Assembly (NCBI GenBank): GCA_019118935.1
Contig: DWXY01000023.1
Coordinates: forward strand, 11,356-75,355
Length of the DNA: 64,000 nucleotides
Reading direction: 5' to 3'
From: Candidatus Oscillibacter pullicola
Lineage (GTDB): Bacteria; Bacillota; Clostridia; Oscillospirales; Oscillospiraceae
Below the pieces are notes generated by a model. It saw only the letters and a program-made list of their open reading frames with translations. It did not search any database and was not told the DNA's origin. The position numbers and the translations under genes are program-made. Shown here piece by piece: positions 3,731 through 38,933 of the stretch. How positions within the stretch are numbered: position 1 is the stretch's first letter; each line of letters begins with the position of its first letter.

Positions 3731-4831
3731 CTATCCCGGCAGCCCCTGCTTCAGGATGCTCAGGGCGCTCTCCATCCGGGGCGCCACGTCGGCGCCGTAC
3801 AGCAGCGCCACCCGGCCCACCTCCCGGCCATTGACCGAGAACACCGCCTCCCCGGCCCGCCGGCCAGCCCGGATGGGGGCCCGCAGAGGCCCGTCCAGCT
3901 CCACGTCCATCTCCAGGGACTCCCCCTCCGCCAGCGGCCAGGCGAAGCTGTCCGCCGCCACCAGGGGCACCGCGGCGCTCATGCCGTTTTCCACCTGGGC
4001 CCGCTGGATCGTCTGGCCCAGAGAGGCTCCCAGCTTGGCGGGATAGGTGGAAAAGCCGTAGTCATACAGGGCCGCGTGGTCCGCCCAGTCGTTGCCGTCC
4101 TGGAGGGTCACCGCCACCAGCCGCTGACCCGCCCGCTCCACACAGCTCACCAGCGTCCGGCCTGCCGCCATGGTATAGCCGGTCTTCAGGCCGATGCACC
4201 CCTCCACCTGGTTCAGCAGCTTGTTGTGGTTGGTCATGGTCCGCCCGCCGATGGTGACGCTGCGGGTGGAGGCCATCCGCACCAGGGTCTCATTCTCCAC
4301 CGCCGCGCAGGCAAGGCGCGCCATGTCCCGGGCCGTGGAGTAATGGTCCTCATGGTCCAGCCCGTTGGGGTTGGCGAAGGAAGAGTGCTCCATGCCGATC
4401 TCCCGGGCCGTTGCATTCATCAGCTTTGCAAAGTCCTCCTGGCTGCCGCTGATGTGCTCGGCAATGGCCACGGCCGCATCGTTGCCGGAGCAGAGCAGCA
4501 ATCCGTACAGCAGTGTCTCCAGCGTCAGCTTCTCCCCCACCTTCAAATACATAGAGGAGCCCTCCGTATACGCCGCCTCCCGGGAGACGGTGACCACATC
4601 GTTCAGGTCCCCCTCCCGGATAGCCACCAGGGCCGTCAGGATCTTGGTGGTGCTGGCAATCAGCATTTTCGCGTCGGCGTTCTGCTCATACAGCACCCGG
4701 CCGCTGTCCACGTCCATCAAAATGGCGGAGGAGGCAGACGTACTGACCGCGTGTGCCTGACAAGGGAAAAAGCTAGACAGGGCCGCCAGAGCGATCCCCA
4801 AAGCGGCAAGCCGCCGGAGCAGGGTTTGCAA
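3731..4831 (-). CDS. dacB: D-alanyl-D-alanine carboxypeptidase (PBP5*/DacB-like)
   Basis: Signal peptide, SxxK (ASTTK), SGN and KTG motifs; adjacent to ytfJ/scpAB as in spore-forming Firmicutes; TTG start with GAGGTG RBS. Confidence 0.85.
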   Translation of the reverse strand: MQTLLRRLAALGIALAALSSFFPCQAHAVSTSASSAILMDVDSGRVLYEQNADAKMLIASTTKILTALVAIREGDLNDVVTVSREAAYTEGSSMYLKVGEKLTLETLLYGLLLCSGNDAAVAIAEHISGSQEDFAKLMNATAREIGMEHSSFANPNGLDHEDHYSTARDMARLACAAVENETLVRMASTRSVTIGGRTMTNHNKLLNQVEGCIGLKTGYTMAAGRTLVSCVERAGQRLVAVTLQDGNDWADHAALYDYGFSTYPAKLGASLGQTIQRAQVENGMSAAVPLVAADSFAWPLAEGESLEMDVELDGPLRAPIRAGRRAGEAVFSVNGREVGRVALLYGADVAPRMESALSILKQGLPG

Positions 4832-6009: not shown

Positions 6010-6663
6010 TCAAGGCGCCTCTTCCTCCATGGCGCCGGCCGTCTCCGGCGTGTCGGCTCCGGTGATCTCTGCCGTGTCCGCCGGGTCCACGATCTGTCCG
6101 TCCTCGCCGATCCGCATCTGCCCCTCGCCGCCAAGGTCCGGCAGCTCCGGCAGGTCATCCAGGCTGGTCAGATGGAAGGCCCGGAGAAACTGTTTGGTGG
6201 TCCGGTACAGGCGGGGCCTTCCGGGCACCTGCAGGCGGCCGCACTCCTCGATCAGTTTCCGGTCCAGCAGCAGGCCGATGGTGTAGGCGCTGTCCACCCC
6301 CCGGATCTGATCCACATAGGCCCGGGTGGTGGGCTGGTAGTAGGCAATGATGGTCAGCACCTCCAGCGCCGGCTGGCTGAGCTTGGCAGGCTTGCGGATC
6401 TCAAAAGCCTTCCGGATCACATCCGCATAGTCCGGCGCGGAACACAGCTGCCAGGTGTCCTCCATGTGCAGCAGGCGGATGCCCCGGCGCTCGTAGGCGT
6501 AATAGTCCATCAGCTTCTGGAGCACCTGCTCCACCGTGGGGCGGTCCATCTCCAGGGCCACGCAGATCCGGTCGGTCTGCACCGGCTCCCCGGAGGCAAA
6601 CAGGATGCCCTCCACCGCCGATTCGATCTCTTTCATCTCCATCTTGGAATGGTCCTCTCTCAC
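6010..6663 (-). CDS. scpB: SMC-Scp complex subunit ScpB
   Basis: LSQPALEVLTIIAYYQPTTRAYVDQIRGV, GRPRLYRTTKQFL. Confidence 0.95.
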   Translation of the reverse strand: MREDHSKMEMKEIESAVEGILFASGEPVQTDRICVALEMDRPTVEQVLQKLMDYYAYERRGIRLLHMEDTWQLCSAPDYADVIRKAFEIRKPAKLSQPALEVLTIIAYYQPTTRAYVDQIRGVDSAYTIGLLLDRKLIEECGRLQVPGRPRLYRTTKQFLRAFHLTSLDDLPELPDLGGEGQMRIGEDGQIVDPADTAEITGADTPETAGAMEEEAP

Positions 6664-25548: not shown

Positions 25549-25585
25549 AAGAGAGCGCCGCGAGCTTTGCTCGCGGCGCTCTCTT
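25549..25585 (+). terminator. Intrinsic terminator
   Basis: AAGAGAGCGCCGCGAGC-TTT-GCTCGCGGCGCTCTCTT perfect stem. Confidence 0.8.
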
Positions 25586-25673: not shown

Positions 25674-25752
25674 GCATCAGCCCGGAGGCCACGTCATGTC
25701 TCTGCCGCTCAGTACGTGGAAGTGCAGGTGAAATACGCTCTGCCCCGCCTGC
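25674..25752 (-). repeat. Duplicated 3' end of the HIT gene (direct repeat of 25893-25971)
   Basis: 79 bp, 78/79 identical; encodes [24 protein letters not shown] without a start. Confidence 0.95.
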
Positions 25753-25892
25753 ATTCCCCACCGGGCCGAGCCCGGCGGGGACCCCGGATAAAACTTGAGC
25801 GGGCAGGCATAGCCCGCCCGCTCCAAGGTTTTGCTTCGCAAAACGCTTGCACGCGCGCTCGCGCGCGGCCCCGCTGGGGCCGTGGCTCCCAG
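25753..25892 (-). mobile_element. Short multi-hairpin non-coding element E1 (putative non-autonomous mobile element)
   Basis: Several hairpins; homologous to 37710-37865; lies between 79-bp direct repeats; mobility is inferred. Confidence 0.65.
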
Positions 25893-25895
25893 GCA

Positions 25896-26234
25896 TCAGC
25901 CCGGAGGCCACGTCATGTCTCTGCCGCTCAGTACGTGGAAGTGCAGGTGAAATACGCTCTGTCCCGCCTGCTCGCCGATGTTGGAGACCACCCGGTAGCT
26001 GTCCAGGCCCTTTTCCTTTGTCAGCTTGGCAATGACCTCAAAGATGTGAGCCACCACCATGCTGTTGTCCGCGGTGATCTCGGACACAGAGCCGATATGG
26101 GCCTTGGGCACCACCAGAAAGTGGGTGGGCGCCTGTGGATCAATGTCATTGAAGGCGTAGCACACGTCGTCCTCGTAGACCTTGCTGCTGGGAATCTCCC
26201 CGGCGATGATCTTGCAGAATAGGCAATCGGACAT
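25896..26234 (-). CDS. hinT: Histidine triad nucleotide-binding protein (HIT family)
   Basis: DCLFCKII, DIDPQAPTHFLVVPK, HLHFH triad; AAAGGAGG RBS. Confidence 0.95.
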   Translation of the reverse strand: MSDCLFCKIIAGEIPSSKVYEDDVCYAFNDIDPQAPTHFLVVPKAHIGSVSEITADNSMVVAHIFEVIAKLTKEKGLDSYRVVSNIGEQAGQSVFHLHFHVLSGRDMTWPPG

Positions 26235-26236
26235 TT

Positions 26237-26431
26237 TCAAACCTCCTTTGATGTGATCGGTATAAATTGATGATAAACGGGATCGTAGCGATAGTCAACC
26301 CCCGCCAGTGTTTCCCGCAAGGACTGCTCGTCCGCGTTCAGGGACGCACACAGGTCTTCCAGGTCCGCATATTGGTCCCGGAGACGGGCGTTGATGAAGC
26401 TCAGAAGGATGTACGGGTCCTTAGGCAGCAT
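26237..26431 (-). CDS. DUF4250 family small protein
   Basis: MLPKDPYILLSFINARLRDQYADLEDLC pattern. Confidence 0.8.
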   Translation of the reverse strand: MLPKDPYILLSFINARLRDQYADLEDLCASLNADEQSLRETLAGVDYRYDPVYHQFIPITSKEV

Positions 26432-26491
26432 GGCAGTCCTCCCTTTTTCTGTAAAGGAAAATTGCTTGTAATATTCTAAAAGCAAAGAGTT

Positions 26492-26836
26492 TTACCGCAC
26501 CGGTGTGTAGTTGATGGATGCTTCCTCCTCTGTGGCCTCCAGCTTGAAGATCACGGGGCGGAGCCCATCGTTGCAGGAGCAGATGGCCACGCCGGGCTTG
26601 CGGATCCAGTCTCCGTAGTAGAACAGGCCCTCCCCCGCCCCGTGGGCCAGGGCAAACACATACTGGTAGATGGCCTTCCAGGCCTCGTCGCACAGGCCCT
26701 CCGGCTTGGCGTAGTCGGCGTAGAACACCCGGCCCTCCCGCAGCATGGGGCAGGGACCCAGGCCCTCGGCACCGTACTCCGCCGCCAGCTCTTTGTCCAG
26801 GGTGGTTTTCAAGACGGTGATCTTGACTTTTTTCAT
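26492..26836 (-). CDS. TIGR04076 family protein
   Basis: KPEGLCDEAWKAI...CNDGLRPVIFKLE. Confidence 0.8.
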   Translation of the reverse strand: MKKVKITVLKTTLDKELAAEYGAEGLGPCPMLREGRVFYADYAKPEGLCDEAWKAIYQYVFALAHGAGEGLFYYGDWIRKPGVAICSCNDGLRPVIFKLEATEEEASINYTPVR

Positions 26837-26854
26837 GGGGTGTCCTCCTTTGGG

Positions 26855-27472
26855 TCACGATTCCTTCTTCATCCGGAACTCAACAGGTTCAAACGTAAAC
26901 AGGGGCTTGCGTTGCTGCACCTTTCTCCCCTTAGGCTTCTCCAGTCCCAGTGTGTCGTAATACTCGTCGGAGAACTTCAGAACCGACGGGGCAAAGGCCG
27001 CCTGGAGTTCCTTCACCCGCCGGAACGGGTCCCGGGGCTGGATGTGGAACGTCTCCGCCAGCAGCGCCAGGGACGCGTCCCGTCTCTTGAAGTCCTCCTC
27101 ACAGCCCAGCCAGGTGTTGGCATCGTTGTCCGCCAGGAGCTTCCGGAACCGGGCCTCATCCATCAGGAAAATCTGGGCCAGGGGGCTGGTGCCTTTGCAG
27201 TAGAGTACATGGGACAAGAACTCCCGGAAGTCCGCTCCCACCGGCAGGACAAAGGTGCCCTCCCCCGCCAGCTCCGGCTCCACGCAGTACACTCCCTCGT
27301 CCCCCGGCAGGAGGACGAAGTGGGTCCCGCAGCTGCCCCATCCAATGATCTCGGCGTTCTCCGGAGTACAAAAGTACCGCACCGGATCCGCGCCGGTCCC
27401 CGGCTCCAGCTCCAGCAGGGAGAAGTCCAGAGGCAGGCTGAAAAAGGTCTGGATGCCCTTACGAGTTGACAT
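26855..27472 (-). CDS. Hypothetical protein (205 aa; possibly SUKH/SMI1-like)
   Basis: GAAAGGAG RBS before MSTRK; YFCTP...IIGW..GTHF pattern; the upstream part of the 360-aa ORF is read through repeats. Confidence 0.6.
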   Translation of the reverse strand: MSTRKGIQTFFSLPLDFSLLELEPGTGADPVRYFCTPENAEIIGWGSCGTHFVLLPGDEGVYCVEPELAGEGTFVLPVGADFREFLSHVLYCKGTSPLAQIFLMDEARFRKLLADNDANTWLGCEEDFKRRDASLALLAETFHIQPRDPFRRVKELQAAFAPSVLKFSDEYYDTLGLEKPKGRKVQQRKPLFTFEPVEFRMKKES

Positions 27473-27524
27473 AATTTTTCTCCTTTCGGGGCGGGTCTCC
27501 CCGCAGGGGGCTGTTCCCACGGGG

Positions 27525-27676
27525 TGCGCCCCCATTCTCTTTTTGGTTGCGCCAAAAAGAGAATGCGCCGCGCCCGGAGGAAGAGAAAAAGCGCTTTGGC
27601 GCGCTCCGGTGCAGTGGCCCTCCGCGCGACGGGGGTCGGCGGATCGGTGCCTGCTCCGATTTTGCCTGGCCTTCGG
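27525..27676 (+). repeat. Palindromic interspersed repeat copy E3
   Basis: Hairpin CATTCTCTTTTTGG-TTGCG-CCAAAAAGAGAATG plus blocks shared with the reverse complement of 28021-28178. Confidence 0.8.
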
Positions 27677-27812
27677 GCACGCTATAATCTTCTGCCAGGT
27701 CGGTACTGCCGTCCCGTGGCGGATGGTGCTGGCCTCGTCGGGGTGGTCATCGCATTGACCGGCTTCACTTTTCGCTGCCGCTGGCCCGGTGGTTGATGAA
27801 AGCCTCCGCAAA

Positions 27813-27838
27813 GGGCCGATGAGGGCATCGGCCCCTAC
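27813..27838 (-). repeat. GTAG-type REP sequence
   Basis: Minus strand GTAG-GGGCCGATG-CCCT-CATCGGCCC: tetranucleotide plus a perfect 9-bp hairpin. Confidence 0.7.
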
Positions 27839-28020
27839 GGGGACACGGAAGGCTTTCGGTCTTGTTTGATACAAGCTGCTACGACCTCCAGTGCAACGCG
27901 TAGCGAAGCGGAACGCGCGGAAAGAGAAGCTGGTCAAATGCGTTCTTGCAACCCGTTGCCCTCCGCACCCGCGCCGCGGGAATCAGCGTACAAGTCTGTA
28001 CTGCACCCCGCCGCGCCCGT

Positions 28021-28178
28021 CGGAACGCCATCGCAAATCCGCAGGCACCATCTCACGCCGACCCCCGTACAGCGCGGAGGCACGAAGGTGCCGGAGCGCG
28101 ACTAAAGCGTTTTTTCTCTTTGGACCGTGCACGGCCCGTTTCTCTTTTGGCAAGGCCAAAAGAGAAATGGGGGGTGCA
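28021..28178 (-). repeat. Palindromic interspersed repeat copy E4 (inverted relative to E3)
   Basis: Reverse complement shares AAGAGAAAAA-CGCTTT, CGCGCTCCGG, CCTCCGCGC, ACGGGGGTCGGCG and GGTGCCTGC with E3. Confidence 0.8.
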
Positions 28179-28225
28179 TTGGGACAAGCCGGCAATCCGG
28201 CGGATTCCCCGTCCAATGGGACGTC

Positions 28226-30889
<2,664 letters not shown>

Positions 30890-30938
30890 AAAATTTCTTC
30901 CTCCTAAAATGTGTATGATTGGATGATGTCGTATACGG

Positions 30939-31142
30939 TTATTTCTCTTCCGCCAGGACCAGTTTGGCGAAGTCCTCCAGGGAGTCGCCGGGGCGGTCCT
31001 CCGGGTGGTCCAGCAGGTTGAAAAAGCAGTTGGGGACCTCCCGCAGCCGGAGGTTTTTCTGGATGCAGGGCGCGCAGCCCTGGTCGTGCTTGGTGGGGTG
31101 CAGCGGGCAGTTCAGATTGCCGCAGGTGCAGAAGGAAGGCAT
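30939..31142 (-). CDS. Small Cys-rich protein (DUF6485-like)
   Basis: CTCGNLNCPLHP...CAPCIQKNL...PNCFF; AGGAG RBS. Confidence 0.7.
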   Translation of the reverse strand: MPSFCTCGNLNCPLHPTKHDQGCAPCIQKNLRLREVPNCFFNLLDHPEDRPGDSLEDFAKLVLAEEK

Positions 31143-31161
31143 CTGGTTTTCTCCTTTTCTC

Positions 31162-31944
31162 TCATGGCTCTGTCAAAATCTCCCCCCGGGAGAACAGGGC
31201 CGCGTATCCGGCCAGCCGGACGCGGTCACCCATTCGGCGGCAGTACAGGGTGCCGCCCCGGGGCGAGGCCTGACAGGCCGTCAGCTGGTCCTTTCTCAGC
31301 CGCTCTGCCCAGTAGGGCACGATGTGGCAGTGGCCGGAGCCGCAGACCGGGTCCTCGTCCACCCGGAGCTTGGGGGCGAAGGAGCGGGACACGCAGTCAA
31401 ATTCCCCCTCCCCCGGCGCCGTTACATGGAGCAGCAGGCCCGGCAGATCCAGCGCTTTTCCCAGGTCCGGCCGCAGGGCGGTAACATCCTCTGCCCGGTC
31501 CAGGATGCACAGCAGATCCCGGCCCAGCCAGGCCTCCCGGGGGCGTCGGCCCAGGACGGCGGCCATGTCCTCTGTCACCTCCGTAGGTGCCAGCGCATAA
31601 GCTGGGAAGTCCATGGCCAGGAGACTTCCCTCCCGGGTGACGGTGAGGGGCCCGCTGAGACTCTGGAACGTCACCTGCTCCGCCGCCGGGTCCACAAACT
31701 GGAAGTACACATAGGCGGAGGCCAGAGTGGCGTGACCGCACAGGTCGATCTCCCCGCCGGGGGTGAACCAGCGGATGTGGAGGCCGTCCGCCTCCTGCAC
31801 CACAAAGGCCGTCTCGGAGAGGTTGTTCTCCATGGCGATCCGGCGCATCAGGGCGTCCTCCGGCCAGCGGTCCGGAAAGCACACCGCCGCCGGATTTCCG
31901 GCAAAGACCTCCTCTGTGAAGGCATCCACGATATACTGTCTCAT
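31162..31944 (-). CDS. PhzF family isomerase/epimerase
   Basis: VDAFTEEVFAGNPAAV, ENNLSETAF, LCGHATLA, EDPVCGSGHC. Confidence 0.93.
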   Translation of the reverse strand: MRQYIVDAFTEEVFAGNPAAVCFPDRWPEDALMRRIAMENNLSETAFVVQEADGLHIRWFTPGGEIDLCGHATLASAYVYFQFVDPAAEQVTFQSLSGPLTVTREGSLLAMDFPAYALAPTEVTEDMAAVLGRRPREAWLGRDLLCILDRAEDVTALRPDLGKALDLPGLLLHVTAPGEGEFDCVSRSFAPKLRVDEDPVCGSGHCHIVPYWAERLRKDQLTACQASPRGGTLYCRRMGDRVRLAGYAALFSRGEILTEP

Positions 31945-31969
31945 GTGAGCTCCTCCTGTCTGGTCAAAG

Positions 31970-32190
31970 AAAAACCGCCCCTGACGCACGTCAGGGGCGG
32001 AAGGACTTCCACGGTACCACCCTGATCTGTCCCATGGGGACATCTCATGTCATCCGCTAACGGGGATGGGCCGTCCCGCTCACCGCGGGCCGCTCCAAAG
32101 TGGCTGCTCCGCGGCGTGGGCAAGGGGCTCGCACCGTCTCCCCTCTCGCTTGGCCGGTCTCGCGAAGCTGGCTTTGTCATAGCTTTTCGC
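31970..32190 (-). ncRNA. T-box riboswitch, Ala (GCC specifier)
   Basis: T-box AGGGTGGTACCGTGG (32009-32023); terminator stem 31975-32000 + T-run; stem I CAAAG/CTTTG closing a GAGCA-GCC-A specifier loop (GCC at 32102-32104). Confidence 0.88.
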
Positions 32191-32207
32191 TGTTTTCAGA
32201 CACAATT

Positions 32208-32235
32208 ATTATAAACGTTTCTGCCCGGTTGTCAA
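32208..32235 (-). promoter_or_regulatory. sigma-A promoter of the Ala T-box operon
   Basis: TTGACA-N16-TATAAT. Confidence 0.85.
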
Positions 32236-32243
32236 CGGGGAAA

Positions 32244-32435
32244 TCACAGGTTTTTTCCCTTGTCTCCGGAAATCCCCGGAACCTGCTTCCCTGTCAGAAT
32301 GCACACGCCGTCCGCCACACACTTGCCGCATCCGATGCAGCTGGTAGGTCCGCTCTTCCGGCCATACGCTGCCCAGCAGTAAAAGCCCGTGCCCGCCAGG
32401 ATGATCCCTGCCGCCAGAATCTCGTGCCACGCCAT
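32244..32435 (-). CDS. Small membrane protein with a Cys-rich tail (FeoB-associated-like)
   Basis: One TM then CIGCGKC...C; AAGGGGG RBS. Confidence 0.5.
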   Translation of the reverse strand: MAWHEILAAGIILAGTGFYCWAAYGRKSGPTSCIGCGKCVADGVCILTGKQVPGISGDKGKNL

Positions 32436-32462
32436 GTTGCAGTCCCCCTTTTTGTTTTTAGC

Positions 32463-32909
32463 CTACCACACAAAGGGGGTACTTGTCTGTGGCAGCTGCA
32501 ACAGCCGCAGGCCCAGCAGCGGCAGCAGCTCCGCCGCAGGAGCCGGAAGTTCCGGCAGGGGAAATTCCTGGGGTTCCACCACGCCGCCGCCCGGCCGGGG
32601 CAGCTGCCGCTGGACGCACAGGACCGGCTCCGCCAGGCTGGACAGGGTGAGACTGTCCCTGGGGGACAGGCCGTAGGTGACCACCGTCTCCGCCGTGATG
32701 CGCTCCAGCGGCACCGTGCAGTCCCCCGGCACCAGCAGCACCCGGCACAGGGCCGCCGTATCCCCCAGCTCCCCGCACCCCCGGCGGGTCAGGACCAGCA
32801 GGGGCCAATACTGTTCCGCCAGCGCCTCTGCCCGCTCCGCCCCCAGGACGCCGGGCGGCAGCAGCTTTCTCCACACCGGGGGACAGTGGAAGATAACTCC
32901 CTCCATCAA
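32463..32909 (-). CDS. Conserved hypothetical protein
   Basis: GGAGGTG RBS; VVTYGLSPRDSLTLSS...LCVQR...VEPQEF segment resembles clostridial Mur-ligase-like fragments. Confidence 0.6.
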   Translation of the reverse strand: MMEGVIFHCPPVWRKLLPPGVLGAERAEALAEQYWPLLVLTRRGCGELGDTAALCRVLLVPGDCTVPLERITAETVVTYGLSPRDSLTLSSLAEPVLCVQRQLPRPGGGVVEPQEFPLPELPAPAAELLPLLGLRLLQLPQTSTPFVW

Positions 32910-33025
32910 AACACCTCCCGGCTAGTGTCTGCGGGAGGTGGGATTCCATGCAAAAAAATTTGCTCGTCATTTTGCCCCTGCCGTGCTATACTGGAACGTG
33001 AGATTTTGGAAACGGGGTGATCTCC

Positions 33026-33559
33026 TTGCATTTCTGGGCCCATCTGCGGACCGTGAACCGCCACCGGGCACTGGTGCGGAAGTACTGCTTCCGCCTGGGG
33101 CTGTACTGGCAGGGCCTGACCCATGACCTGTCCAAATACGCCCCGGTGGAGTTCTTCGCGGGGGTGAAATATTTCCAGGGGGATCACAGCCCAAACGACG
33201 CCCAGCGGAAGGCCCACGGGTACAGCGCCTCCTGGCTCCACCACAAGGGCCGCAACCGCCACCACTTTGAGTACTGGACGGATTACAGCCCCACCGGCGA
33301 GGGGATCGTGGGGGTGGAGATGCCGAAAAAATACGTGGCGGAGATGTTCTGCGACCGGCTGGCCGCCAGCAAGGTCTACCGCGGGAAGGACTTCGATCCC
33401 GGTGACCCTTACAAGTTCTATCTCCGGGGCAAGGACCGGCGGCTGCTGATCCACCCGGCCACCGCCGCCCTCCTGGAGACCATGCTTTTAAAGCTGCGGG
33501 ATGAGGGCGAGGACGCGGTATTTGATTACATCCGGCGGGAGATCCTGGGAAACCCCTAG
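33026..33559 (+). CDS. DUF5662 family (HD-like) protein
   Basis: HDLSKY, WLHHKGRNRHHFEYW, EMFCDRLAASK. Confidence 0.8.
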   Translation: MHFWAHLRTVNRHRALVRKYCFRLGLYWQGLTHDLSKYAPVEFFAGVKYFQGDHSPNDAQRKAHGYSASWLHHKGRNRHHFEYWTDYSPTGEGIVGVEMPKKYVAEMFCDRLAASKVYRGKDFDPGDPYKFYLRGKDRRLLIHPATAALLETMLLKLRDEGEDAVFDYIRREILGNP

Positions 33560-34743
33560 GGTCTCCCGCTGTTTTTCCGGTCCAGCACCCGCTCCAGGAA
33601 GTCCGCCGCGGCTCCGGCGCCGCCGGCGGCCCGGAAGCTCTCCGCCACCCGGGCGGCGTTTTCCCGGAACCGGGGCTCCCCCAGAACGGTCTCCAACGCC
33701 CGCCGGATGGCGGTCGGCGTCTCCCGGCGCAAGCGCACCCCTAGGCCCAGCGATTCCATCCGGTCCGCCACAGCGGCCTCCTCCCCCTGCTGGGGAAAGA
33801 GGATGGCCGGCACCTGGCAGAAGACGGCCTCGTTGGCGCTGTTCATGCCGCAGTGGGTGAGAAAGGCGTCCGCCTCCGCCAACACCGCCAACTGGTCCAC
33901 CCGGCGCTCCACCCGGAAGTTGCCGGGGGCTGGCCCCAGGGCCGCCGGATCCGTGGCCTCCCCCACAGAGAGGACCACATCCAACGCCTGCCCTCCCAGA
34001 GCCTGGAAGCAGTCCCGGTAAAAGCCGGGCCGCCGGTGCATCACTGTGCCCAGGGAGATGTAGACCAGCGGGCAGTCCCGCCTTCGATTCCGGGGCGGCA
34101 GCTGCGGCAGCGAGGGCCCCACAAAGGCGAACCGGTCTCCAAAGGTCTCCGCCATGGGCTGGAACAGCCGGGAGGTGTAGACGATGGTATCGGTGTCCGC
34201 CCGGTTCTCCAGCAGCTGCCGCAGGTCCTCCGCCGGATAGCCCCGCTGCCGCAGGCGGGCCATGTCCCGCCGGATGCGGCCCAGGCCCAGGGCCATCCGG
34301 GCGGTCTCCGCCAGCCCCGGCCGCATCAGGGCGGCGGTCTGATTGTTGAAAGCAAAGGTAGTGGTGGAGCAGACCCAGGGCAGCTTCAGCTTCCAGGCGA
34401 AGAGCTTGCCCCACAGGCAGACGGAGTCCACTGCAAGAAGGTCCGGCCGCCATGCCTCCAGCTCCCGGCACACCGGCGTCTCCATAGCCAGGGCAGTGTC
34501 CGTCAGCATGCCCACCATGGAGGCGAAGTCCCGGCCCACCCGCCGGTCCAGATCCGGCGGCGGAGGTGGCATGAACTCGTCGCACAGGCGAACCTCCGCC
34601 CCCGCCGCCTCCAGTTTTTCCCGGAAGGGGGCGAAGGTGTAGTAGCGTACCTGATGACCCCGGGCCGTCAGGGCCCGCACCACCTCCACCGTTGGATTGG
34701 TGTGGCCCCAGGCGGGGATGCAGAACCAGACGATCCGGCTCAC
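33556..34743 (-). CDS. MGT-family (macrolide/xenobiotic) glycosyltransferase
   Basis: IPAWGHTNPT, VYISLGT, VDQLAVLAEADAFLTHCGMNSANEAV (UDPGT signature). Confidence 0.9.
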   Translation of the reverse strand: MSRIVWFCIPAWGHTNPTVEVVRALTARGHQVRYYTFAPFREKLEAAGAEVRLCDEFMPPPPPDLDRRVGRDFASMVGMLTDTALAMETPVCRELEAWRPDLLAVDSVCLWGKLFAWKLKLPWVCSTTTFAFNNQTAALMRPGLAETARMALGLGRIRRDMARLRQRGYPAEDLRQLLENRADTDTIVYTSRLFQPMAETFGDRFAFVGPSLPQLPPRNRRRDCPLVYISLGTVMHRRPGFYRDCFQALGGQALDVVLSVGEATDPAALGPAPGNFRVERRVDQLAVLAEADAFLTHCGMNSANEAVFCQVPAILFPQQGEEAAVADRMESLGLGVRLRRETPTAIRRALETVLGEPRFRENAARVAESFRAAGGAGAAADFLERVLDRKNSGRP

Positions 34744-34952
34744 GGCTCCTCCTCCCAATTCAAAAAGCCCTCCAGCTGCTGGAACAGTACCTCGTCCTTG
34801 GTGAGGGCTATGCCCCGCTGTTCGTCCGCCAGCACCAGCAGGGTGTCCCCCGGCCGGATGTTCAGAAGGTCCCGGGCTCCCTTCGGAATGACGATCTGGC
34901 CCTTCTCCCCCACCCGGGCGGTGGCGGCGAATTTTCCCTTCGGCGGCTTCAT
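34740..34952 (-). CDS. AbrB/MazE/SpoVT family DNA-binding protein
   Basis: ARVGEKGQIVIPKGARDLLNIRPGDTLLV; AAGGAGG RBS; stop overlaps the next start (GTGA). Confidence 0.88.
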   Translation of the reverse strand: MKPPKGKFAATARVGEKGQIVIPKGARDLLNIRPGDTLLVLADEQRGIALTKDEVLFQQLEGFLNWEEEP

Positions 34953-34981
34953 GGCAAGCGCCTCCTTCTGTTTTCTTTAAG

Positions 34982-35038
34982 AGTATGAAAAGTTATATTT
35001 TTCATACTTTGTATACCATGCGGCGCGGCGTCTGTCAA
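34982..35038 (-). promoter_or_regulatory. sigma-A promoter plus 10-bp inverted-repeat operator
   Basis: TTGACA-N17-TATACA (35038-35010); AGTATGAAAA-N7-TTTTCATACT (34982-35008) at the transcription start. Confidence 0.7.
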
Positions 35039-35069
35039 GGAGAACCTTTCCTGCGTTGGTGTACCTCTC

Positions 35070-35420
35070 TCATCCGTCCTGCTCCTGACGCTCCGCGCCT
35101 TCGGCGGCCAGCAGGACCGCGGCGGCCGGGGCGGCGGCGGTCTCCGGCACTCCCAGCGTTTCCAGCTGCCGGCGGGCCTGACAGAGCCGCAGGGCCCATT
35201 CCAGCCCCTCCGGCGTCAGCGCCAGATCCCGCCGGTCCCGCTCCAGCCACCCCCGCTGCCGCAGCAGCGCCGCGGCCCGGGACACGCTGGGCTTGGAGCA
35301 GCTCAGCCACCGGACCACGTCCCTCTGGAACACCATCCGCTGTCCGCCCCGGGAGAGGCGGCAGATGGCCTGGAGGTACTTCCCCTGGGAGGCGGTGGGC
35401 GCCCCCTTCTCCGGCCTCAC
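35070..35420 (-). CDS. DtxR/MntR-like winged-HTH protein (N-terminal domain only)
   Basis: KYLQAICRL...DVVRWLSCSKPSVSRAAALL...LTPEG; lacks a full metal-binding domain. Confidence 0.6.
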   Translation of the reverse strand: MRPEKGAPTASQGKYLQAICRLSRGGQRMVFQRDVVRWLSCSKPSVSRAAALLRQRGWLERDRRDLALTPEGLEWALRLCQARRQLETLGVPETAAAPAAAVLLAAEGAERQEQDG

Positions 35421-36028
35421 CGGACGCCCCAGGCCACAAAGGCCCGGCCTCCCGCCTGCCGCCAGGTGATCTGATGAAAGGCCTGCCCCAGCAGGTCCGT
35501 GATCTCCCGGCGGGAGTAAATTTTGACGTCCCCTTCCCGGCTCCAGCGGAGGAAGGGGTTCATCACCAGCCGCCCCGGCAGGGGCAGCCAGATGTCCCCC
35601 AGCAGAAAGACCCCGCCGAACTCCAGCACCCGGCTCACCTCCGCGATCACCGCCGCCGGGTTTGGGTAGTGGTGGAAGGAGTCACAGCAGTAGACCACGT
35701 CAAAACTGCGGTCCGGAAAGGGCAGATGCTCACTGTCCCCCTGGACCAGGTTTGCCCGGTCCCCCAGGCGGGCCCTGGCCTGGGCCAGCATCCCCTCCGA
35801 CAGGTCCAGCCCCGTCACCCGGCGGTGCGCATCCTCGGAAAGTACCTGCGCCATCAGCGCCCCGGTGCCGCAGCCAAGATCCAGTACCCGGTCTCCCCAG
35901 GCATGGATGATCTCCTGGAGCAGATAGGGGTACAGCGCCCGGGCATGGCTGCCCTGGATGGCAGTGTCATAGGTGGCGGCCTGCTGGTCAAAGGCTGCGC
36001 GGGACTGTTGCTTCTTATCTGGTTCCAT
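35417..36028 (-). CDS. Class I SAM-dependent methyltransferase
   Basis: VLDLGCGTG, GLDLSEGML, GDSEHLPFPDRSFD, FHHYPNP. Confidence 0.9.
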   Translation of the reverse strand: MEPDKKQQSRAAFDQQAATYDTAIQGSHARALYPYLLQEIIHAWGDRVLDLGCGTGALMAQVLSEDAHRRVTGLDLSEGMLAQARARLGDRANLVQGDSEHLPFPDRSFDVVYCCDSFHHYPNPAAVIAEVSRVLEFGGVFLLGDIWLPLPGRLVMNPFLRWSREGDVKIYSRREITDLLGQAFHQITWRQAGGRAFVAWGVR

Positions 36029-36097
36029 TGTCGTTCCTCCTTTATTGAACTTTGTTCATTCGTATGGTGAAAGCTGCGCCCGGCGCGGGCCGGGCGG

Positions 36098-36673
36098 CTA
36101 TCTCTGCTGTTCCGCCTCCAGCAGCAGGTCGATGTAGTGGCGGACGCGGTCCAGCGTCTCCTGCCGGGGCGTCTCACTGGCGCTGAGCAGGGGGATCTGG
36201 CCGTAGGTGACAAAGGCGATCAGCGTCTCCGGGTCCCGGAAGCGGCGGCCGGAGCGGCGTTCCTCCTGGTCCAGCGCCTCCCGCAGCAAGGGCGCCATCC
36301 GCTGGCAGAGCCGCAGGGACAGCTGCTGGTGGAAGTCCTCGTTCCCCGCCCGGTGGAAGAAGCCGTGGTAGCGGAAGGCATCCTCCCCCCGCATGGTCTG
36401 GTACAGCCGGTCCAGCTTTTGGGACAGGGGCAGCGTCTCCTCCTGCAAGGTGCGGCGGATCAAGCCGCAGCACTCCTCCACATAGGCTTCCATGGCCTCC
36501 TGAAACAGCTTCTGCTTGGAGTCGAAGTACCGGTAGCACAGACCGGCCACCACGCCGCAGGCCTGGGCGATGTCCCGCATGGAGGTCTCCTCGTACCCCT
36601 TCTCCGTGAACAGCCGCATGGCCGTCTCCAGAATCTCCTGCCGCCGGACCTCCGGGGCTTTCGATATGCGCAT
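36098..36673 (-). CDS. TetR/AcrR family regulator
   Basis: RRQEILETAMRLFTEKGYEETSMRDIAQACGVVAGLCYRYFDSK. Confidence 0.92.
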   Translation of the reverse strand: MRISKAPEVRRQEILETAMRLFTEKGYEETSMRDIAQACGVVAGLCYRYFDSKQKLFQEAMEAYVEECCGLIRRTLQEETLPLSQKLDRLYQTMRGEDAFRYHGFFHRAGNEDFHQQLSLRLCQRMAPLLREALDQEERRSGRRFRDPETLIAFVTYGQIPLLSASETPRQETLDRVRHYIDLLLEAEQQR

Positions 36674-36698
36674 GGACCTCTCCCCCTCTCTGGCAGAG

Positions 36699-36748
36699 AG
36701 CATAGCACACCGGTGAACAAAAGTCAATGATTTTTGTTCACCGGTGTG
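36699..36748 (-). promoter_or_regulatory. TetR promoter and 17-bp perfect inverted-repeat operator
   Basis: TTGACT-N17-TATGCT; CACACCGGTGAACAAAA-N9-TTTTGTTCACCGGTGTG straddling the -35. Confidence 0.8.
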
Positions 36749-36763
36749 TGGATCAGCAGATGT

Positions 36764-37576
36764 TCACTTGATATGGGCGCCGAGGCTGGCAAACAGGTCC
36801 AGCAGGGGCTCCCACAGGTCCGGGTGGTGCTCCAGCAGGAAGGATCGGACCTCCGGGGCCGACAGGCCGTCCCCCCACAGCAGCACGTGGCTGCCGGAGG
36901 CGAACTCTCCCACGGCAGTGGGCGCCACGGCGGAGACCGCCACGGCGATTTTCGCAGCGATGGCCGCCACGCCGCCGGTGTAGACCCCCACGGCGCTGAC
37001 GCCCAGGGCCAGATACCCCAGGGCCGCCACGCCGAAGGCCCCCAGTCCGGCGGCCACGATACCCAGGGACAGCAGGCCCATGCCCACCACGCCGAAGGTG
37101 AACAGGCCCACTCCCACAATACCGATGGCCACTACGCCCACGGCGGCGTTGCCGATGGCGATGATGCCCCTGGCAACATTGTCTTTGGAGAAGGTCGCGT
37201 TCCGGACGAAGCCGAACCGGATAGACACCAGGGGCAGGCCGAAGATCCGGGTCTTGCTGTCATAGCGGTAGACTTTGCCCTTCACGTAGCGGGTCAGCTC
37301 GTCCACCTTTTTCTCCAGCCGGTCCGCCTGCCGGGCGGACAGATCGTCTCCCCCACGCTCCGCTTCCTCCGGCGAATCCAGCCGGTCCTTTACCAGATAG
37401 TCCACCGACACATCAAACAATTCTGACAAGGAGATCAGCTTCACAAGCTCTGGCATGGCTGTTCCGGACTCCCATTTACTGACGGACTGGCGGGTGACCC
37501 CCAGCCGGTCCGCCAGCTGCTCCTGGCTCATGCCGGACTTGCGGCGGAGGTCCGTCAGCTTCTCGGAAAATGTCAT
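36764..37576 (-). CDS. XRE-family HTH regulator with a Gly-rich membrane domain
   Basis: FSEKLTDLRRKSGMSQEQLA...TRQSVSKWESG; RIFGLPLVSI...ARGIIAIG Gly/Ala-rich TM repeats. Confidence 0.85.
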   Translation of the reverse strand: MTFSEKLTDLRRKSGMSQEQLADRLGVTRQSVSKWESGTAMPELVKLISLSELFDVSVDYLVKDRLDSPEEAERGGDDLSARQADRLEKKVDELTRYVKGKVYRYDSKTRIFGLPLVSIRFGFVRNATFSKDNVARGIIAIGNAAVGVVAIGIVGVGLFTFGVVGMGLLSLGIVAAGLGAFGVAALGYLALGVSAVGVYTGGVAAIAAKIAVAVSAVAPTAVGEFASGSHVLLWGDGLSAPEVRSFLLEHHPDLWEPLLDLFASLGAHIK

Positions 37577-37657
37577 CTGCAAAACACTCGCTTTCTCGTT
37601 TGGATGGCCCCATGATAAGCCACCCACCGCGCACCTGACAAGAACGCGGTGGGTGGA

Positions 37658-37709
37658 ACTTTGTCAACCGGAGGTTGCACCCATTGAGGCGCAATGGATT
37701 GACGGTTTT
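37658..37709 (+). repeat. Direct repeat A (pairs with 37866-37917)
   Basis: ACTTTGYCAACCGGAGGTTGCACCCATTGAGGCGCAATGGAT core 41/42 identical, 48/52 when extended. Confidence 0.9.
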
Positions 37710-37865
37710 GGAAGCCCTTCCCCGGCGGGCCAGCGGTCCGCCCGCCGCTTTTGCGGCGTACAAGTGTTTTGCCGCTGGCGGCGAAACCTTGAGGAGGCCG
37801 GGCTTTGCCTGGCCGACTAAAATCAAATCCGGGGTCCCCGCCGCGCCATCTTGGCGCGGCGGGGC
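37710..37865 (+). mobile_element. Short multi-hairpin non-coding element E2 (same family as E1)
   Basis: Shares GG(G/A)AGCC, GT(G/A)CAAG(C/T)GTTTTGC, AAACCTTG, CGGGCT(A/T)TGCCTG and ATCCGGGGTCCCCGCCG...GGGG with E1; flanked by direct repeats; mobility is inferred. Confidence 0.65.
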
Positions 37866-37922
37866 ACTTTGCCAACCGGAGGTTGCACCCATTGAGGCGC
37901 AATGGATCGGCAGTTTTAGCCT

Positions 37923-38933
37923 TTACCAGATCCCCAGCAGGTGCTGGACTCCCAGGCTGACCAGGGCGATGGCCACCCAGCAGCAGAAGCCCATAAAGAT
38001 GGGCTTGGCACCGCTTTTTACCAGCTTCACGATGTCGGTGTTCAGGCCGATGGCCGCCATGGCCATGACGATGAAGAACTTGCTGGCGTTTTTCAAGAAG
38101 CCCGTGACCGCTCCGGGAATAGGCAGCACCGTGGTGATGATGGAGGCAATCAAAAACAGCAGCACGAACCAGGGGAAGATCTTCTTGATGTCCACCTGTG
38201 CGCCGCCCTGCTTCCCCTCCCGGCGGGTCCGCAGCAGGGCCAGCACCAGGGTGATGGGGATGATGGCCAGGGTCCGGGTCATCTTCACGATGGCGGCAGT
38301 GTCCAGGGTGTTGGCGCCGGGGTGCATCCCGTCCCAGGCGGCAGCCGCCGCGGTGACGGAGGAGGTGTCGTTCACCGCGGTGCCGGCAAAGAGGCCGAAG
38401 CCCTCGTTGGAGAGGCCCAGCACACCTCCCAGGGTGGGGAAGATCAGCGCCGCGATGACGTTGAACAGGAAGATCACAGAGATGGCCTGGGCGATCTCCT
38501 CGTCATCCGCGCCGATCACCGGGGCGGTAGCGGCGATGGCGCTGCCGCCGCAGATAGAGGAGCCCACGCCGATGAGGGTGGAGATGTTGGCGTCCATGCG
38601 CAGGGCCTTGTAGAGCACAAAGGCCACGATCAGGCTGGTGGCGATGGTGGAGACGATGATGGGCAGGGACTGCCCGCCCACCTGGAGGACGCTGCCCAAG
38701 TTCATGCCGAAGCCCAGCAGCACCACCGCCAGCTGCAAAATCTTCTTGGAGGTGTAGGTGATGCCGGACTTGGCTGCCTTCTGGTCTTTCCAGAACAGGG
38801 CGATCACCATGCCGATCAGGATGGCGAACACCGGGCCGCCCACCACCTCGAACCGCTGCCCCAGCAGCCAGGCGGGCACGGCGATCACCAGACAGATCAG
38901 GATGCCCAGGGCGTTTTTTCTGACAAATTCCAT
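37923..38933 (-). CDS. YeiH family putative sulfate exporter membrane protein
   Basis: [33 protein letters not shown]. Confidence 0.9.

Follow-up and report, generated by a model that had tools for sequence, protein, structure and literature searches.

Structured RNA repeats flanked by long duplications of host sequence: an apparently undescribed family in Oscillospiraceae gut bacteria

How do two short sequences, 12 kb apart and on opposite strands of one genome, come to share an ordered series of hairpins when each is bracketed by its own long direct repeat of local host DNA? The question is raised by two elements, E1 and E2, in a stretch of 64,000 nucleotides from Candidatus Oscillibacter pullicola (GenBank assembly GCA_019118935.1, contig DWXY01000023.1, positions 11,356 to 75,355 of the forward strand), hereafter the window. 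Comparison with homologous loci showed that E1 and E2 are members of a large, apparently undescribed structured-RNA repeat family in Oscillospiraceae gut bacteria. Its footprint has three parts: a direct repeat of 30-120 nt of the target, a short stretch in which the target edge is copied in inverted orientation, and a 3' end that is exact. This footprint fits no known bacterial mobile element or RNA family, and we class the family among small non-autonomous interspersed elements or structured RNA repeats.

The two elements and their RNA

We describe a host site as A-T-B and a filled site as A-T1-(linker)-g-core-T2-B, where T1 and T2 are the upstream and downstream copies of the direct repeat (DR), g is a short segment just 5' of the core, and hp1 to hp5 are the hairpins of the element. 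The features of the two loci are as follows.

25753 to 25892, minus strand: element E1, with AAT after hp5; 89.8 bits with the covariance model
25882 to 25892, minus strand: leader of E1
25867 to 25881, minus strand: hp1 of E1
25852 to 25866, minus strand: hp2 of E1
25824 to 25849, minus strand: hp3 of E1
25797 to 25823, minus strand: hp4 of E1
25781 to 25796, minus strand: single-stranded joiner of E1
25756 to 25780, minus strand: terminal hp5 of E1
25893 to 25971, minus strand: T1 of E1, the last 25 codons, the stop codon and 3 nt of a HIT-family gene
25674 to 25752, minus strand: T2 of E1, a non-functional duplicate of the HIT gene end
25896 to 26234, minus strand: HIT-family (histidine triad) gene with duplicated 3' end, identified from its translation (Pfam HIT/DcpS_C)
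37710 to 37865, plus strand: element E2; 83.5 bits with the covariance model
37710 to 37723, plus strand: leader of E2
37724 to 37742, plus strand: hp1 of E2
37743 to 37758, plus strand: hp2 of E2
37761 to 37791, plus strand: hp3 of E2
37796 to 37814, plus strand: hp4 of E2
37815 to 37835, plus strand: joiner of E2
37836 to 37864, plus strand: hp5 of E2
37658 to 37709, plus strand: T1 of E2, intergenic, in the 3' untranslated region (UTR) of a minus-strand PF03601 membrane-protein gene
37866 to 37917, plus strand: T2 of E2, ending 5 nt short of the PF03601 stop codon

A first-pass annotation, made from the sequence alone, had already placed both elements; their coordinates, strands and shared ordered blocks were confirmed, with 78% identity in a pairwise alignment. 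The bracketing by direct repeats of unequal length was also confirmed (79 nt for E1, 52 nt for E2). E1 lies in sense orientation in the 3' UTR of the HIT-family gene, and its two repeat copies differ at 1 of 79 nt, a synonymous change from GGA to GGG in T2. The functional gene end is T1, whose sequence is present once in the empty allele L059 (loci and contigs from other genomes are given L numbers). The 52-nt repeat of E2 has one mismatch in its first 42 nt and then a diverged tail of 10 nt, and it reaches 64 nt when weaker similarity is counted; the stop codon of the PF03601 gene follows in reverse complement at 37923-37925. As first described, neither element contains a credible open reading frame (ORF) or terminal inverted repeats. 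The latter are absent family-wide: 5' ends vary by locus, while the 3' end reads ...GGGG(C).

Both loci are represented in RNA. In four chicken-gut metatranscriptomes, a 249-nt contig covers part of T2, all of E1 and part of T1, at a depth at least that of the HIT gene (78 versus 27 in X27), with zero depth over the 100 nt beyond T2. E2 is likewise covered in RNA contigs, and another family member was found at a depth of 119. The element is transcribed with its host gene and accumulates as RNA.

Beyond E1 T2, a perfect 17-bp inverted repeat (AAGAGAGCGCCGCGAGC / GCTCGCGGCGCTCTCTT) lies at 25549-25585, between the convergent HIT-side region and a gene for a 487-aa SLH-like protein. It is probably a shared bidirectional terminator, and RNA contig depth was zero between it and E1 T2. 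Directly upstream of E2 T1, at 37620-37657, is a GC-rich hairpin (CCACCCACCGCG...CGCGGTGGGTGG) similar in both form and location to the terminal hairpin of the element itself. The target of E2 may have been the foot of a pre-existing terminator hairpin. The annotated genes of the window are housekeeping genes, e.g. alaS, comEC, holA, glnS, rpsB, tsf and tyrS.

A structured family in Oscillospiraceae

To define the family, one genome per species was scanned with a pattern derived from the conserved core alone (TTTTGC..AAACCTTG..CCGGGGTCCCC), the direct repeats forming no part of it. The scan returned 58 loci in 58 species-level genomes. Judged by their record titles, essentially all of these belong to Oscillospiraceae, including Flavonifractor, Pseudoflavonifractor, Intestinimonas, Oscillibacter, Dysosmobacter and numerous uncultured genera. 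Two element-bearing bins are labelled otherwise, L011 (UQSV01000096.1) as Coriobacteriaceae and L058 (CAVJBM010000147.1) as Anaerovibrio. We suspect binning errors rather than a wider host range, because L011 is nearly identical to the Oscillospiraceae-type locus L044.

A covariance model built from 41 of these 58 loci detected 79 copies, spread over roughly 40 loci and as dense as three in 8 kb (L037), which bears out the proposal of a multi-copy, structured, ORF-less family. In the window, an unfiltered full scan with this model recovered only E1 and E2, everything else scoring below 17 bits.

The sense strands of E1 and E2 each form a multiloop of four hairpins with a terminal hairpin after it. 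Their minimum free energies of -93.9 and -102.3 kcal/mol correspond to z-scores against shuffled sequences of -5.7 and -6.8, respectively; the antisense strands fold less stably relative to shuffles (-4.1 and -4.2). The core of about 120-160 nt begins with hp1, which is optional, and hp2. Next come hp3, which hardly varies (CAAGYGUUUUGC...GCAAAACCUUG), and hp4, whose loop is conserved; the single-stranded AAAUCCGGGGU joiner and the terminal hp5, built as CCCC-variable stem-GGGG, complete it.

Covariation, which had been read from two sequences only, is borne out by 75 distinct homologues. It was measured on a model-guided alignment, in which fit to the model inflates pairing: 96.3% of cells are paired, and 21 of the 32 base pairs show changes on both sides. 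Cells changed on both sides numbered 344, against 111 in shuffles, none of the 500 shuffles reaching the observed value, and the covariation score fell from 0.38 to about 0.05 once the 3' partner was slid. A plain MAFFT alignment, not fitted to the model, already scored 0.265 versus 0.109. Covariation is free in hp2, hp4 and upper hp5, while almost no variation is seen in hp3, in the CCCC/GGGG base of hp5 or in the joiner CCGGGGU; such constancy suggests a catalytic core or a contact, either tertiary or with a protein. In 40 of the 75 copies, a G-U pair stands directly above the hp5 base; since the opposite strand would have a C-A mismatch there, the sense strand is the structured one.

Two further features of the fold were seen. 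The first concerns the hp4 loop and the joiner (alignment columns 97-105 and 117-128): the loop contains GAATTC in most copies (GGAAUUCACUUCC), and the joiner often has GUGAA or AUGAA, complementary to loop UUCAC or UUCAU. A pseudoknot could result from this pairing, which is visible by eye in a subset of copies. The second is a minority sub-type with the hp4 loop GGGCUWUGCCUG, to which E1 and E2 belong and for which a metagenome scan returned two loci only.

Searches for a known counterpart gave nothing. Across the whole window, no Rfam 15 family matched at gathering thresholds, and the best hits at permissive E-values (15-19 bits against thresholds of 41-70; RsmW, HDV, M23) are at chance level. 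A hepatitis delta virus (HDV)-like ribozyme was rejected as noise (15.4 bits against a threshold of 50, E = 7.7), the element does not contain a hammerhead core, and full-text literature searches found no description of the family. Scans of plasmids and of IMG/VR viral contigs gave no match to the element, while a phage collection gave two short partial matches covering 26-39% of E1 (MT838853.1 and MT838705.1). These are unannotated 'Bacteriophage sp.' contigs of about 5 kb from human faeces and may be misassigned bacterial fragments. With such trivial matches as the only ones, a phage or plasmid origin was rejected.

Flanking repeats, junctions and age of the copies

The flanking duplications are general. 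Among the 62 copies far enough from a contig end to be testable, 58 have their own locus-specific DR, 33-120 nt long (28-120 nt over all DRs measured, with a median of about 62), so that the locus-specific, variable duplications first noticed in the window hold for copies elsewhere. The unit of repeat plus element is mostly 200-245 nt long. Tandem arrays of the form repeat-element-repeat-element-repeat occur at L005, L012, L016, L020, L022, L029, L042, L046 and L058.

Three features of the junctions had escaped the first-pass annotation: a sharp 3' edge, an inverted 'guide' segment and a junction at ORF ends. On the 3' side, T2 begins 0-3 nt past the last GGGG of hp5, while the 5' side is ragged, with a linker of 0-90 nt and an optional hp1. 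In most copies, segment g occupies the 7-17 nt immediately 5' to the core and reads as the reverse complement of the host DNA found at T's upstream edge. Exact runs of at least 8 nt were found in 48% of copies versus 1.8% of mismatched-locus controls, at a fixed position. The longest matches, in L045 and L050, are of 17 nt, and one of 16 nt was seen by eye in L002. Segment g fits the T1 context better than that of T2 at 20 loci, and the reverse holds at 5. Segment g is therefore an inverted copy of the intact gene sequence across the edge of T, and it can pair with the start of either T copy, closing the fold.

The third feature concerns the T1/linker junction, which falls directly after the stop codon of a co-oriented upstream gene at about 20 loci and within a few nt of it at about 20 more; such sense-oriented stop-codon junctions account for about two thirds of copies. 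Stop-adjacent T1 ends, e.g. at L026, L033, L054 and window 25893-25898, are far commoner than for a random duplication boundary. Where the neighbouring gene is on the opposite strand, the junction lies just outside its Shine-Dalgarno site or start codon. At L012 (about 3900-4260) and L046 (about 6100-6500), the element is antisense and the repeat ends exactly at the gene start codon, the linker supplying a new Shine-Dalgarno site with the right spacing for the functional gene copy. We considered whether the stop junction could be the remnant of a longer duplication with a decayed non-coding part. This gained no support as a general explanation, as linker and post-T2 sequence are not detectably homologous at most loci (z > 2 for linker versus B only in L018, L048 and L038).

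The repeats are not decaying target duplications: T2 changes in the manner of coding DNA and in concert with T1. Within genomes, T1 and T2 differ at 79 synonymous and 11 non-synonymous codons (88% synonymous, in a tally of partial per-locus output), and T2 keeps its stop codon in place, with swaps among TAA, TGA and TAG. Between species, T2 shows 67 synonymous and 9 non-synonymous codon changes, and T1 87 and 3, against a rough neutral expectation for T2 of about 56% non-synonymous. Splicing that would make T2 a real exon cannot be the cause, because the antisense copies of L012 show the same pattern (8 synonymous versus 1-2 non-synonymous differences). A freezing of T2 by nucleotide-level constraint was also rejected, since T2 changes between species at about the rate of T1 and mainly at third codon positions. 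T1 and T2 have species-specific variants in common, in patches, which points to gene conversion. We infer that T2 is curbed indirectly, recombination with the functional copy or with empty alleles exposing damaging variants to selection.

Mismatches between repeat copies at 41 loci were also asymmetric, with A/T in T1 against G/C in T2 in 63 cases and the opposite in 36. Possible causes are a conversion of the idle copy that is biased towards GC, and selection acting on the functional one.

Empty orthologous sites, which the first-pass annotation had proposed to look for, were found for three loci. At the E1 locus, contigs encoding an identical HIT protein take three forms: A-T-B with exactly one T in L059, L061 and L063; A-T-E-T-B in the window, L062 and L064; and A-T-E'-T-E-T-B in L060, assembled with k = 141. 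The empty contigs L061 and L063 carry SPAdes-style names, and the assembler could in principle have skipped the repeat loop. The empty sites in other genera are immune to this artefact: a truB-like locus is filled twice in L012 and empty in L033, L044 and L055, and the locus of L046 is empty in L024. Three observations that had been named as grounds for dropping the proposal (copies lacking flanking duplications, no empty sites in relatives, a match to a known family) were thus not made: duplications are general, empty sites exist and no Rfam family matches.

Two contigs show oddities. In L060 (3340-3700), the copy nearest the gene lacks the invariant GGGGUCCCC and reads GGGGCCCCC, and differs by about 5% from the second copy; this degenerate version is the sole copy in L065. 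At about 1030-1180 the latter contig also repeats part of the downstream flank, in some 160 nt of G/C-rich sequence of low complexity; this is probably an assembly chimera.

The same E1 insertion is present in L075, where the HIT gene is about 6% diverged; it has compensatory changes in hp5 and hp2, and its T1 and T2 have lineage-specific synonymous variants in common. Because the site is occupied in so diverged a relative, the empty E1 alleles are probably losses by recombination between the repeats. Family-wide, identity between copies at different loci is only 60-77%, also where both lie in the same genome. It is 85-100% between orthologous copies, with cores often more conserved than adjacent coding DNA, and 80-100% between tandem copies (most at least 93%; 80% in L005). 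The copies are therefore not recent insertions: with low paralogue identity, high orthologue identity across species accompanied by compensatory changes, and a coding-like T2, the present copies are old, mostly vertically inherited and under selection for structure. They gain and lose units through recombination between repeats.

Origin of the footprint

We tentatively propose, at a probability of roughly 0.45, that the structured element spread by duplicative, RNA-templated insertion akin to target-primed reverse transcription. Any specific step of this scheme is much less certain than the whole. A non-autonomous structured RNA would have been mobilised in trans, its sense RNA or single strand serving as template. 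The antisense segment g would select or mark the target, the defined RNA 3' end would be joined or copied at the first base of T, and downstream-primed DNA synthesis would copy T again, before or after a template switch. One generative process would thus have written all three parts of the footprint. Target-primed template switching is favoured because it is the simplest scheme that yields a long target duplication of variable length together with a 3' end that is exact and a 5' side that varies, the combination expected of a SINE-like (short interspersed nuclear element) target-primed process and the one found here. A bolder version is doubtful: a bacterial SINE-like retroelement with RNA-guided targeting, in which the antisense segment would pair with the target, the GGGG(C) 3' end (possibly self-cleaved) would be joined or copied, and a host or partner reverse transcriptase would write the long direct and short inverted target copies.

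Eukaryotic SINEs and other non-LTR (long terminal repeat) elements offer the closest parallels to the proposed insertion: they are non-autonomous, structured and transcribed from host promoters, with an exact 3' end, a variable 5' side and variable duplications. The target-primed systems compared include R2, with its flank-pairing ribozyme, and R9, with a 126-bp duplication. Unlike SINEs, the element has no A-tail and no identified partner reverse transcriptase, and a target-complementary 5' segment is not a SINE feature. We know of no SINE-like target-primed system in bacteria.

Several results weigh against RNA-templated insertion. No reverse transcriptase, transposase or nuclease is linked to the family, the annotated part of the window holding housekeeping genes, and no autonomous partner was found adjoining odd copies (L039). 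In the small genome parts sampled, no near-identical pair of copies at different loci was seen, and thus neither a sign of a recent burst nor direct evidence of current mobility. Matches of g run up to 5 nt past the DR edge into A, which does not suit a simple copy-the-primer model. In E1 and E2 themselves they are at chance level (5-nt runs), the leader of E1 pairing instead, by eye, with the end of T1. The ORF-end junction is explained neither by the proposed model nor by any mechanism considered. Finally, the RNA contigs, being unstranded and broken at repeats, show the abundance of the RNA but neither its ends nor its direction.

The evolution of the repeats invites another explanation, in which units of T plus element spread between strains or species, as a minicircle excised between repeats or as taken-up linear DNA, and integrate by homologous (Campbell-type) recombination in a conserved coding segment, which would leave the element between two gene-end copies. 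T1 and T2 do look like two alleles: their differences are almost only synonymous, stops are swapped yet in place, and in group B the tails encode RLVK* in T1 and KLVK* in T2 while differing at about 40% of nucleotides. Similarity ends exactly at ORF ends, as between diverged orthologous loci, and in the antisense cases L012 and L046 the T1-adjacent sequence gives a different Shine-Dalgarno site. Moreover, the internal T copies of L060 carry window-type strain alleles rather than those of its own T1, and tandem arrays and 0-, 1- and 2-copy alleles exist. Such exchange, however, accounts for spread at one locus and not for the same core at about 40 unrelated loci. It leaves unexplained the constant 3' junction at the hp5 foot and the inverted target-edge copy 5' of the core, and the T1-side linker differs strongly between species with the same locus, which argues against recently imported units; we consider it unlikely as the origin of the family. 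A far less credible view is that the element is a host cis-acting 3' UTR RNA module, acting in mRNA stability or as a translation-linked switch, that was never mobile, the local duplications being independent. The conservation of structure in each copy, orthologues more conserved than flanking synonymous sites, abundant co-transcribed RNA and an antisense segment that could pair with a coding region traversed by ribosomes would all suit such a role. Yet one core at about 40 unrelated loci requires a copying process, the same footprint of DR, inverted segment and sharp edge everywhere speaks for one generative mechanism, and certain loci hold the element in one genus but lack it in another. An element with a function may also have been mobile in the past, and the host-RNA view competes solely in its claim that the element was never mobile.

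Transposition as DNA is improbable in either of two forms. Insertion sequences of the IS1634/IS1549 type reportedly make long, variable direct repeats of tens to hundreds of bp, and a MITE, or miniature transposable element with inverted repeats, moved by their DDE transposase would fit the long DRs of 28-120 nt, their variation by site and a dispersed, multi-copy, ORF-less family. These insertion sequences are themselves 1.5-2 kb long, with a transposase gene and terminal inverted repeats. The element has neither an ORF nor family-wide inverted termini, one of its ends is sharp and the other ragged, and it carries an inverted target-edge copy. Its RNA-like fold, with sense-strand G-U pairs, is not needed by a double-stranded DNA substrate, its orientation relative to host genes is strongly biased, and no transposase was seen in the window or near copies. 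As the first-pass annotation had held, it is also unlike classical MITEs, its DRs far exceeding their fixed 2-10 bp; the sole inverted pairing in the family is locus-specific and joins the 5' segment to host DNA. The other form is a single-stranded DNA element of an HUH enzyme (RAYT, IS200/IS605 TnpA or an IS91-type Rep), its hairpins being recognition sites and its repeats the product of unusual fork resolution. GC-rich hairpins at or near both ends (hp1, hp5), a strand-specific structure, and an abundance and position after genes like those of repetitive extragenic palindromes (REPs) would be expected of it. To our knowledge, HUH elements of bacteria insert beside a fixed tetranucleotide and leave no target duplication. 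A precedent for variable-length target duplications exists in the eukaryotic HUH transposon Replitron-1 (PMC10288648). However, the reconstructed targets have no conserved motif, the sequence-invariant hp3 and joiner have no counterpart in HUH elements, and no HUH gene was found; the HUH/RAYT-type mechanism suggested at first gained no specific support, with no enzyme identified.

Four further classes of known systems resemble the element in part. REPs and bacterial interspersed mosaic elements (BIMEs), with their RAYTs, and other IS200/IS605-derived elements are likewise high-copy, GC-rich, strand-specific hairpins just after genes, able to stabilise upstream mRNA. REPs are palindromes of about 35 nt with a conserved GTAG head and no flanking duplication, whereas the element is a multi-hairpin sequence of 120-160 nt with DRs; IS200/IS605-derived elements insert next to a fixed tetranucleotide without duplication, whereas the targets here have only a weak A|G preference in common and are duplicated as DRs. 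Retron non-coding RNA, in which a1/a2 inverted repeats close msr-msd, is also a multi-hairpin RNA with a closing helix that differs between copies. A retron, however, is a single-copy locus adjoining its own reverse transcriptase, while the closing helix of the element uses host sequence, no reverse transcriptase is adjacent at E1 or E2, and about 40 loci are occupied. In diversity-generating retroelements, too, a gene 3' end up to the stop codon is repeated shortly downstream, by a structured RNA. This candidate was rejected: mismatches are not adenine-specific (of 132 DR mismatches most are transitions, in both directions, and only about 15 involve A in T2), and the neighbours of E1 and E2 are housekeeping genes, with no reverse transcriptase or Avd gene nearby. 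Finally, integrative elements that restore gene ends (tRNA/tmRNA 3' ends, the dusA 5' end) duplicate a gene end, one copy functional and one displaced, with coding-like differences, and sometimes supply new translation signals. These are kilobase islands with an integrase and one specific target, against a 140-nt core and about 40 targets here. By their defining features, the family is therefore not a MITE, a REP/BIME, an IS200/IS605 derivative, a diversity-generating retroelement, a retron or a member of any Rfam family. Its footprint is common only to IS1634-type insertions, through the long repeats, and to eukaryotic target-primed retroelements.

A long duplication, a short inverted target-edge copy and an exact 3' end together are made by no known bacterial transposition pathway, and the footprint therefore suggests a so far unknown route by which DNA or RNA is copied into genomes. 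This route may be guided by RNA, hence of interest for genome engineering. If the bolder, retroelement version were true, bacteria would have a first family of target-primed, non-intron retrotransposons, and the element might represent a new class of ribozyme. On the practical side, the repeats break short-read assemblies at element loci, and gene callers will see duplicated gene ends. The family also provides evolutionary genetics with a case of 'dead' duplicated gene ends evolving in a coding-like manner across species. If upheld, these results would mean that a family of structured RNAs, conserved, abundant and highly expressed, has gone unnoticed in a major gut-bacterial group comprising Flavonifractor, Intestinimonas, Oscillibacter, Dysosmobacter and their relatives.

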